From assembly GCF_003991155.1 (NCBI RefSeq), contig NZ_CP031293.1: a stretch of DNA of 64,000 nucleotides. One strand, written 5' to 3'. The notes beneath the pieces are model-generated. The model saw only the letters and a list, made by a program, of their open reading frames with translations. It searched no databases and had not been told where the DNA came from. The translations under genes and the position numbers were made by a program. Positions 10,436 through 43,243 of the stretch are shown in pieces (position 1 is the first letter of the stretch; each line of letters begins with the position of its first letter). Origin of the DNA: Escherichia coli (lineage in GTDB: Bacteria; Pseudomonadota; Gammaproteobacteria; Enterobacterales; Enterobacteriaceae).

Positions 10436-13588
<3,153 letters not shown>

Positions 13589-13605
13589 TACAACGTGTAA
13601 TCACT

Positions 13606-13630
13606 AAGGCCGCGCAAGCGGCCTTTTTTA
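13606..13630 (+). terminator. Intrinsic terminator downstream of acrB
   Basis: AAGGCCGCGCAAGCGGCC followed by TTTTTTA; GC stem with GCAA loop and T-tract 18 nt after the acrB stop. Confidence 0.8.
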
Positions 13631-14133
13631 TGCATAACCTACGAACATTAAGGAGTCATTGAACCACCAACTCAGGATCTCATACGAAAACCAGTATTAA
13701 ACACGTATAAAATTCATAAAAAATACTGATTGTTAGTTAATTTATATTAAGTAGCGCTAATAGATTTAATAATCCATAATCATTTAGAGGCTATTCTTAA
13801 TTATTTGCGGTAATTCTTTATTCATTCCTCGGTTATTACGTCATATTCAGAGCAATCCTGGTATTAGTGTTACCAATTTCATCTGGCGATAATCCTGAAA
13901 TGTTATGAACAGTTCGAGCAAACTGCTTTTACCTGCTGCGGGTTAGTGCTAGTATGAAAAAGTAAGTCCTGTCCCGCTTCCTTCCTAATTGTAATTTTTC
14001 GTAATAATGCGATGAAAACCTGCAAAGAGTGGCTTATAGTTAAGCTAACAAACGAGAGGGCAAGTCCAGGTCAGTAAGTTTTTTCCATCCCGAAAGGTGT
14101 CCGTTAGTTCAACCGCTAAGAAGGGGACGCGTT

Positions 14134-14508
14134 ATGGATGAATACTCACCCAAAAGACATGATATCGCACAGCTTAAGTTTCTCTGTGAAACCCTGTATC
14201 ATGACTGTCTTGCAAACCTTGAAGAAAGCAATCATGGCTGGGTTAACGACCCAACCTCGGCGATCAACCTCCAGTTGAATGAACTGATTGAGCATATTGC
14301 GACCTTCGCACTTAATTACAAAATTAAGTATAATGAAGACAATAAGCTCATTGAGCAGATCGACGAATATCTGGATGACACCTTTATGTTGTTCAGCAGT
14401 TATGGTATTAATATGCAGGATCTTCAGAAATGGCGGAAGTCAGGTAATCGACTATTCCGTTGTTTTGTCAATGCGACGAAAGAGAATCCTGCGAGTTTAT
14501 CTTGTTAG
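14134..14508 (+). CDS. tomB: Hha toxicity modulator TomB (YbaJ)
   Basis: 124-aa [43 protein letters not shown]; immediately upstream of hha. Confidence 0.9.
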
Positions 14509-14533
14509 AATTATTACAACCATGGGTAGAAGT

Positions 14534-14752
14534 ATGTCCGAAAAACCTTTAACGAAAACCGATTATTTAATGCGTTTACGTCGTTGCCAGACAATTGACA
14601 CGCTGGAGCGTGTTATCGAGAAAAATAAATACGAATTATCAGATAATGAACTGGCGGTATTTTACTCAGCCGCAGATCACCGCCTCGCCGAATTGACTAT
14701 GAATAAACTGTACGACAAGATCCCTTCCTCAGTATGGAAATTTATTCGCTAA
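14534..14752 (+). CDS. hha: Haemolysin expression modulator Hha
   Basis: 72-aa frame [75 protein letters not shown] at 14534 inside the longer track ORF 14288..14752. Confidence 0.93.
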
Positions 14753-14923
14753 TAAATAATTCGCTTTCGGAGCTATAACCAGCTGTTTATTAAGAATTTT
14801 ATACTTTATCGCCATGAAGGCATACCCTATGTGATCTTCATCACACAGACGTAATGGGAACGTTCTCTTCACTGACTTTTCGTCTTACTGTGTTGCCGCA
14901 TTTTCAGCAACCGGAGGTCAGTA

Positions 14924-42784: not shown

Positions 42785-43243
42785 TCTGTAAATATTATTT
42801 AGCTGTAGTAATCACTCGCCGTAATTATTACGGCTAAATAAACATCAGCATCGCTTATTAATATTTGTTCTTTTGTGCGGCTTAGCGTCTGGAAATTATT
42901 GACGCTATTTATGAATTCTATTTTTCTTACACGATTCAGCTAATGAGTCTTTATTTTCTCACTACCAAGTTGTCACCTTAATGATAATTATTTGTTAAAT
43001 AATTGTTTTATTTCGCATTGGTTATACCAATTGCCAGCCCAGACTCCTTCTGCACTCCCCTTTTGTTATAACGCCCTTTTGCAACAGCTTCTTAAAATCA
43101 ATCCGATATGTTTTGCAACATATGTGACCTGGAAGCCAAATCCAAGTAACAGGAATTTAATCATGTTTACAGTAATGTAACCTTCCCGTAAAATGCCCAC
43201 ACACTTTAAACGCCACCAGATCCCGTGGAATTGAGGTCGTTAA

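Follow-up and report, generated by a model that had tools for sequence, protein, structure and literature searches.

Between acrB and tomB in Escherichia coli lies an interval of 545 bp, extending from the end of the acrB open reading frame (ORF) at 13588 to the tomB start at 14134, that is, positions 13589-14133 of a 64,000-nucleotide stretch of the chromosomal contig NZ_CP031293.1 (hereafter the window). This interval very probably consists of the acrB terminator followed by an ordinary, multi-input promoter region for the tomB-hha operon with a short leader, a reading that combines the anatomy and conservation pattern of the interval, and its lack of RNA-gene or peptide-gene signals, with published binding of RNA polymerase, H-NS, PdhR, and CpxR and with published autoregulation in Yersinia. 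In the proposed scheme, acrB transcription would stop at a hairpin and T-run within the first ~45 bp, and the remaining ~500 bp would control tomB-hha, transcribed mainly from a proximal sigma-70 promoter (weak -35, good -10) ~87 nt before the ATG. The region belongs to known kinds of element, namely an intrinsic terminator, a sigma-70 promoter with a response-regulator site, and AT-rich upstream DNA of the H-NS type, and most of its inputs are already in databases; the new lead is limited to a family-wide RcsAB-type box that predicts Rcs input. Because Hha and TomB adjust the silencing of horizontally acquired genes by H-NS, and influence virulence, biofilm formation, and persistence as well, the way in which tomB-hha senses conditions is of practical interest.

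The initial annotation had described an unusually long, AT-rich, noncoding stretch with many A/T tracts and no convincing ORF, and this description is borne out. Among the 62 inter-feature gaps of the window (median 82.5 bp), as annotated in a strain with 100% identity to 13589-14133, the acrB-tomB gap is the longest, followed by a 459-bp gap between ampG and cyoA. The identical strain has the same 545-bp gap, likewise without an annotated feature, as does K-12 MG1655 (480709-481253). The GC content is 0.376 over the whole gap and 0.269 over 13701-13860, against a window mean of 0.515, and among 200-bp stretches of the 64 kb, 13683-13882 ranks second in AT-richness (GC 0.27). Eight A/T tracts fall within 13695-13838, and the ORFs of at least 20 amino acids in the gap are all only 21-40 amino acids long, none with a convincing ribosome-binding site and none conserved. 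Of 5426 complete E. coli genomes, 5423 contain the sequence, in single copy, and the matches listed overlie no annotated feature; being single-copy, it is not a repetitive extragenic palindromic element or a remnant of an insertion sequence.

Anatomy and conservation of the acrB-tomB interval

A TomB-based scan with one genome per species recovered 80 loci, 76 of which reached acrB, from Escherichia, Citrobacter, Salmonella, Enterobacter, Klebsiella, Raoultella, Kosakonia, Kluyvera, and other genera, Yersinia not being among them; motif and ORF counts cover 77 loci. Because the gap measures 435-559 bp in all 76 Enterobacteriaceae loci that reach acrB, its length is a conserved, family-wide property, arising from stacked control elements rather than from a hidden gene. 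Escherichia gaps span 545-559 bp and those of most other genera are shorter, typically about 480-530 bp, the difference being due to a variable spacer at 13633-13700 that is found in Escherichia only. Averaged over the gap, column identity to E. coli is 0.46, compared with 0.52 and 0.61 at 4-fold degenerate sites of tomB and acrB, respectively, in the same taxa. Since the gap mean does not exceed that of 4-fold sites, conservation is confined to short islands, located at 13605-13630 (terminator), 13986-14007, 14009-14019 (-35), 14026-14044 (-10), 14082-14100 (CCATCCC with flanks), and 14116-14133 (Shine-Dalgarno sequence). Judged from the alignment, islands of 7-23 bp amid neutral, indel-rich DNA are the pattern of a protein-binding control region, not of an RNA or coding gene. 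The suggestion in the initial annotation that this might be a complex regulatory region thus gains support from the terminator, the conserved core promoter, and no fewer than four protein-binding boxes that are conserved or backed by the literature.

The first of these elements is the acrB 3′ end with its intrinsic terminator (13589-13632, plus strand), in which a stem-loop at 13606-13625 (AAGGCCGC-GCAA-GCGGCCTT) begins 18 nt past the acrB stop and combines an 8-bp stem containing 6 G-C pairs, a 4-nt loop, and a T-run to 13630, the composition expected of an intrinsic terminator. It is the sole terminator-like site on either strand in 13400-14900. Over 76 loci, the island has a mean column identity of 0.83; the loop is variable, and in one case a change in the stem is compensated (GGTCGC...GCGACC in Citrobacter amalonaticus).

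At the opposite end of the gap, a core sigma-70 promoter is predicted at 14012-14040 (plus strand), comprising a -35 hexamer ATGAAA (14012-14017), a 17-bp spacer, and a -10 hexamer TATAGT (14035-14040), from which we infer a start at ~14047 and a leader of 87 nt. The ATGAAA-17-TATAGT combination scores 9/12 in a promoter scan, its hexamers and spacing agreeing with a sigma-70 promoter, and the -35 and -10 islands show identities of 0.80 and 0.86. In genomic SELEX (systematic evolution of ligands by exponential enrichment), RpoD holoenzyme binds the acrB-tomB spacer, for which the identical ATGAAA-17-TATAGT was predicted (PMC3946193). In Salmonella, only the tomB-proximal fragment p922, among three candidate fragments within 1 kb upstream, drove expression of green fluorescent protein (PMC5133643). 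The predicted leader measures 81-101 nt in 71 other loci (72 distinct leaders).

Upstream of the core promoter lies the invariant block TAATTGTAATTTTTCGTAATAA (13986-14007, plus strand; mean identity 0.90 over 76 loci), centred ~49 bp upstream of the predicted start. It contains a CpxR-type direct repeat, GTAAT-N5-GTAAT (GTAATTTTTCGTAAT, 13991-14005, plus strand), which is present in 75/77 loci at 137-157 bp from the ATG. The CpxR consensus is a tandem GTAAA-N5-GTAAA, to which GTAATTTTTCGTAAT has 2 mismatches. Both tomB and hha are listed in the CpxR regulon of RegulonDB, and tomB is a member of the CpxR iModulon (PMC7657598). In the orthologous ymoBA operon of Yersinia pseudotuberculosis, phosphorylated CpxR (CpxR~P) shifts the promoter fragment in an electrophoretic mobility shift assay, the motif lies 56 bp upstream of TSS2, the proximal of two transcription start sites mapped 188 and 106 nt upstream of ymoB, and constitutive CpxR increases promoter activity (PMC13353760). 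In E. coli, 56-57 bp separate the beginning of the repeat from the start predicted downstream of it, which is the Yersinia geometry, and the two operons are also alike in having leaders of about 100-190 nt, whereas the ymoBA starts are mapped and the E. coli start is predicted from hexamers. A response regulator at GTAAT-N5-GTAAT, CpxR according to RegulonDB and the Yersinia work, would compensate for the poor -35.

Farther upstream, the AT-rich block (13701-13860) probably serves as a binding region for H-NS/Hha. Within Escherichia it hardly varies, and across genera only short islands of it are kept. Its composition (GC 0.27 over 200 bp versus 0.515) is that expected of H-NS-bound DNA, and one SELEX-based flag suggests possible occupancy, the acrB-tomB spacer having been marked as containing H-NS sites (PMC3946193). 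In Yersinia, ymoB mRNA is up 81-fold in a ymoA mutant, which indicates negative autoregulation. On the basis of composition, the SELEX flag, and this autoregulation, the AT-rich block would nucleate H-NS together with Hha and repress the operon, resulting in negative autoregulation. Such an arrangement resembles the H-NS-silenced, multi-regulator promoters of the proU, csgD, bgl, and hilA type, which likewise have long, AT-rich, H-NS-flagged upstream DNA and sites for several specific regulators between that DNA and a weak core promoter. Unlike in those cases, the product under control, Hha, is an H-NS co-repressor in its own right, and silencing would thereby close a feedback loop. The low-GC domain extends beyond the gap: the tomB and hha coding regions (window 14100-14900, flanks included) are also AT-rich (GC 0.38-0.45 versus 0.515), and the domain reaches ~1.2 kb past the gap, as would suit H-NS spreading across the operon.

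Two proteins may bind between the putative silencer and the promoter, namely PdhR, in E. coli, and, across the family, an RcsB-type protein proposed from sequence; they would probably modulate or counteract silencing. The PdhR-box-like site TATTAGTGTTACCAATT (13862-13878, plus strand) matches 12/14 positions of AATTGGTnnnACCAATT and is specific to E. coli, not being conserved beyond it. Only three PdhR matches with at most 3 mismatches occur in the 64 kb, the two best upstream of tomB and cyoA; the cyoA-upstream box CATTGGTTATACCAATT (43016-43032, 1 mismatch), inside the 459-bp gap, is the sole better match and provides a positive control. Both tomB-hha and cyoA are published PdhR targets, with tomB-hha directly controlled (PMC3265435), and a PdhR SELEX peak near tomB at K-12 480770 corresponds to about window 14072 (PMC7660256). 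The tomB box printed in the latter study, AAcgGaatcgACCAgcT (8/14), falls inside acrB at window 13119-13135 and is poorer than the 12/14 site (PMC7660256). Its printed coordinate, 480940, fits neither 13119-13135 nor 13862-13878.

A family-wide RcsAB-like palindrome

The palindrome at 13847-13860 is the only element of the gap for which a limited literature search found no published report, and it suggests a testable lead rather than a discovery. The E. coli copy reads TCAGAGCAATCCTG, and the consensus of 66 loci is TARGAATATTCCTR. The core motif occurs in 73/77 loci, compared with 16.2 +/- 3.6 in shuffled gaps, and in 66 loci the palindrome stands 144-187 bp upstream of the invariant promoter block. 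In E. coli, it lies about 290 bp upstream of tomB and ~190 bp upstream of the main predicted start. The 66-locus consensus matches the published RcsAB consensus, TaAGaatatTCcta (PMC4325325), at every position. The E. coli copy is degenerate, agreeing with the consensus at 9/14 positions, and keeps all five capital-letter positions (T1, A3, G4, T10, and C11).

We tentatively propose, with somewhat less than even confidence, that this palindrome is a working RcsB or RcsAB operator, for which partner half-sites are possible in the 13784-13822 repeat (ATTCTTAAT and ATTCTTTAT). A 14-bp palindrome likewise characterizes the RcsAB or RcsB boxes of wza-cps, flhDC, rprA, and osmC, and the agreement of TARGAATATTCCTR with TaAGaatatTCcta places the family consensus among them, whereas the distance of ~190 bp from the main predicted start and the 9/14 match of the E. 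coli copy set the site apart from those operators. A limited literature search found no published report of Rcs input at tomB. Expression of tomB is induced 5.9-fold by a LolCDE inhibitor. Such an inhibitor is expected to activate Cpx as well, and the induction is therefore not diagnostic of Rcs. If the proposal is correct, the Rcs phosphorelay and CpxR would together set the level of Hha and TomB against H-NS/Hha autorepression of the operon, and two envelope-stress systems would be wired directly into xenogeneic silencing across Enterobacteriaceae.

Alternative readings of the interval

The length of the gap could also reflect a genuinely long 5′-untranslated region, in which a distal promoter, at the TATAAT-like 13767-13773 or at GATAAT 13888-13893, would produce a leader of 240-360 nt with post-transcriptional control. 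We consider this unlikely. Many genera keep the TATAAT-like hexamer at the corresponding alignment position, and GATAAT lies 27 bp past the Rcs-like box, a spacing that would suit an RcsB-activated promoter of the geometry known from rprA and osmC, yet in neither E. coli nor Salmonella is the distal -10 accompanied by an acceptable -35. Nor do the Rcs-like box and the conserved block that follows it make up a single promoter unit, given that their spacing varies (27, 38, and 54 bp). An extended -10 at 13947-13955, shared by E. coli, Citrobacter, and Salmonella, and the two mapped starts of Yersinia ymoBA (PMC13353760) are also in keeping with a longer transcript, but the longest mapped Yersinia leader is 188 nt (PMC13353760), and the Salmonella upstream fragments p201 and p622 were inactive (PMC5133643). 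Between the distal elements and the core promoter, the sequence evolves at an approximately neutral rate, with indels, and has no excess RNA structure. For the main promoter, the long 5′ leader envisaged by the initial annotation is accordingly not supported, the predicted leader being ~87 nt and the first ~45 nt of the gap belonging to the acrB 3′ end.

The same annotation had allowed that a small RNA or a small protein might be hidden here; neither idea found support, and on the sequence evidence, which would not reveal an unstable or condition-specific transcript, we regard conserved versions of both as very improbable and reject them. An independent small RNA on either strand might be expected from a gap that is long, conserved in length within the family, and furnished with islands, and promoter-like hexamers are plentiful in its AT-rich DNA. 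The reading is nevertheless highly improbable. The search for structured RNA that the initial annotation had called for was run against Rfam as a permissive E-value scan of 13300-14900 and returned no match near the gathering score; the top matches lie over the acrB terminator, among them the best, uxuA (22.9 versus 66.8 bits). In 13400-14900, no intrinsic terminator other than that of acrB was found on either strand, and the 503 nt past it fold no better than shuffles (z +0.75 and +0.41 for the two strands). The 7-23-bp islands in neutral, indel-rich DNA are also unlike enterobacterial small RNAs, which conserve a seed and a terminator hairpin. A small protein or upstream ORF is slightly less probable still. 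Candidates exist, comprising a 21-amino-acid ORF at 14012-14077, a 13-codon TTG ORF at 13659-13700 with AAGGAG 5 nt before the TTG, and a 13-codon ORF at 13905-13946, whose "ATGAA" island at 13905 is conserved across genera. The 21-amino-acid ORF, however, has its first codon within the -35 hexamer, ahead of the predicted transcription start, is cut by a TGG>TAG change in cryptic Escherichia clades, and resembles other genera only over promoter DNA. Reading frames opening at the "ATGAA" island range from 5 to >30 codons and are unrelated in sequence, and the 13659-13700 ORF lies in the Escherichia-only spacer just past the terminator, with no homologue in the other loci. More generally, among ORFs of at least 10 codons in the 77 gaps, no conserved peptide was found: cross-genus similarity extends over 7-16 residues, nearly all over the invariant block or promoter, and the ORFs vary freely in start, with lengths of 14-101 amino acids.

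Several observations weigh against the preferred reading of a terminator followed by a multi-input promoter with a short leader. The leader length of 87 nt is predicted, on the basis of hexamers and orthology. A single-genome search of the window for the CpxR consensus gave 59 matches versus 47.6 expected, which is not significant, and tomB is absent from the list of direct CpxR targets obtained by chromatin immunoprecipitation with exonuclease treatment (ChIP-exo; PMC7657598), so that CpxR binding here in E. coli draws its support from RegulonDB and the Yersinia work. For H-NS, the claim is founded on composition and one SELEX table flag, and the nucleation motif TCGATAAATT is not enriched in the gap, where it has one 2-mismatch match, on the invariant block. 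The RcsAB consensus, searched in the window at up to 3 mismatches, did not recover the E. coli palindrome, because 5/14 positions of that copy differ, and the copy has no significance alone. Finally, the preferred reading assigns no role to the distal islands (13726-13773) or to the repeat spaced 20 bp apart.

The tomB leader and other features of the region

The predicted tomB leader (14047-14133, plus strand) contains CCAUCCC (14085-14091), a hairpin formed by GUUAG and CUAAG (14103-14107 and 14116-14120), and the Shine-Dalgarno sequence AAGGGGA (14121-14127). A CAUCCC:GGGAUG helix over the ribosome-binding site can pair in 95% of cells; both of its sides are invariant, so there is no covariation, and in E. 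coli the helix carries an A-C mismatch. The inner 4-5-bp hairpin does covary, with 30 cells changed on both sides, a score reached by 0/500 shuffles and lower values in slid controls. Folding of the leader reveals no excess stability (z = -0.04), and RNAalifold applied to the 72 leaders gives a weak consensus (-5.6 kcal/mol, covariation term -0.26). A further candidate helix in the leader, GGUG/CRCU, received little support. The leader is thus similar to Shine-Dalgarno-sequestering leaders and RNA thermometers in its conserved CCAUCCC, complementary to GGGGAUG 30-40 nt downstream, with a small covarying hairpin between them, and differs from them in the lack of covariation in the anti-Shine-Dalgarno helix, the E. 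coli mismatch, the z value of -0.04, and the lack of an Rfam family. All this amounts to no more than a modest hint of translational control, in which the pairing may damp tomB translation.

In addition to the core promoter, a possible second promoter is marked by an extended -10-like element, TGcTAGTAT (13947-13955, plus strand), with a predicted start at ~13962 and a leader of ~171 nt, which may add a second transcript in the E. coli/Citrobacter/Salmonella clade. The pattern TGnTAnnnT occurs 15-70 nt upstream of the invariant block in 19/76 loci, compared with 5.5 +/- 2.4 in shuffles; 16 of these 19, from E. coli, Citrobacter, and Salmonella, have it at a fixed 42-52 nt, and it is not conserved in Enterobacter or Klebsiella. 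A sigma-S peak from chromatin immunoprecipitation sequencing that has been assigned to tomB (K-12 479920-480115) converts to about window 14727-14922, downstream of hha and outside the gap. The alignment at ~13886-13915 shows a conserved block, "CTAAC-N3-4-ATGAA-N3-TAAGG", shared by Enterobacter, Klebsiella, Kosakonia, Trabulsiella, and others (loci L017-L082 of the scan), of which E. coli, Salmonella, and Citrobacter retain only the "GATAAY...ATGAA" part. Since ORFs opening at its ATG are unrelated in length and sequence, the block has the appearance of a DNA or RNA motif, not of an encoded peptide. A minus-strand promoter reading of the "ATGAA...TAAGG" island was dropped, as E. coli has no -35 there.

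Within the AT-rich block, tandem-repeat and repeat-family searches of the gap returned nothing except one 19-nt pair, a direct repeat with copies at 13784-13802 and 13804-13822, 20 bp apart (~two helical turns). The copies end in ATTCTTAAT or ATTCTTTAT, which resemble the right half of an RcsAB box, and a "ATTCTTAATT" island is also found at the aligned place in several other genera. Cross-genus islands, among them "cTTATTGtta" and "TTTATtTT", are located ~360-400 bp upstream of tomB, at 13726-13736, 13741-13748, and the TATAAT-like 13767-13773; no matching -35 and no assignable regulator were found for the islands of 13726-13773. A Fur box considered at 13768-13785 was dropped, since the resemblance is not conserved outside E. 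coli.

Almost every locus outside Escherichia has gaps in the alignment columns of the variable spacer (13633-13700), and even within the genus its sequence differs strongly between E. coli and either E. albertii or the cryptic clades. Here, a strong Shine-Dalgarno sequence, AAGGAG, stands 5 nt ahead of the TTG that opens the 13-codon ORF MNHQLRISYENQY (13659-13700), which is also present in K-12 and has no counterpart in other genera. One locus labelled as E. coli strain SCPM-O-B-8794 (L004) has a gap only ~74% identical to that of the window and groups with Escherichia sp. E1V33 and E. whittamii; it is probably a cryptic-clade Escherichia rather than E. coli proper.

Downstream of the gap, the gene order is tomB (124 amino acids), hha, maa, ylaC, and pdeB. 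Elsewhere in the window, the 200-bp stretch with the highest AT content (50105-50304, GC 0.25) should, by collinearity with the annotated strain, correspond to the panE-yajQ divergent gap and the start of yajQ.

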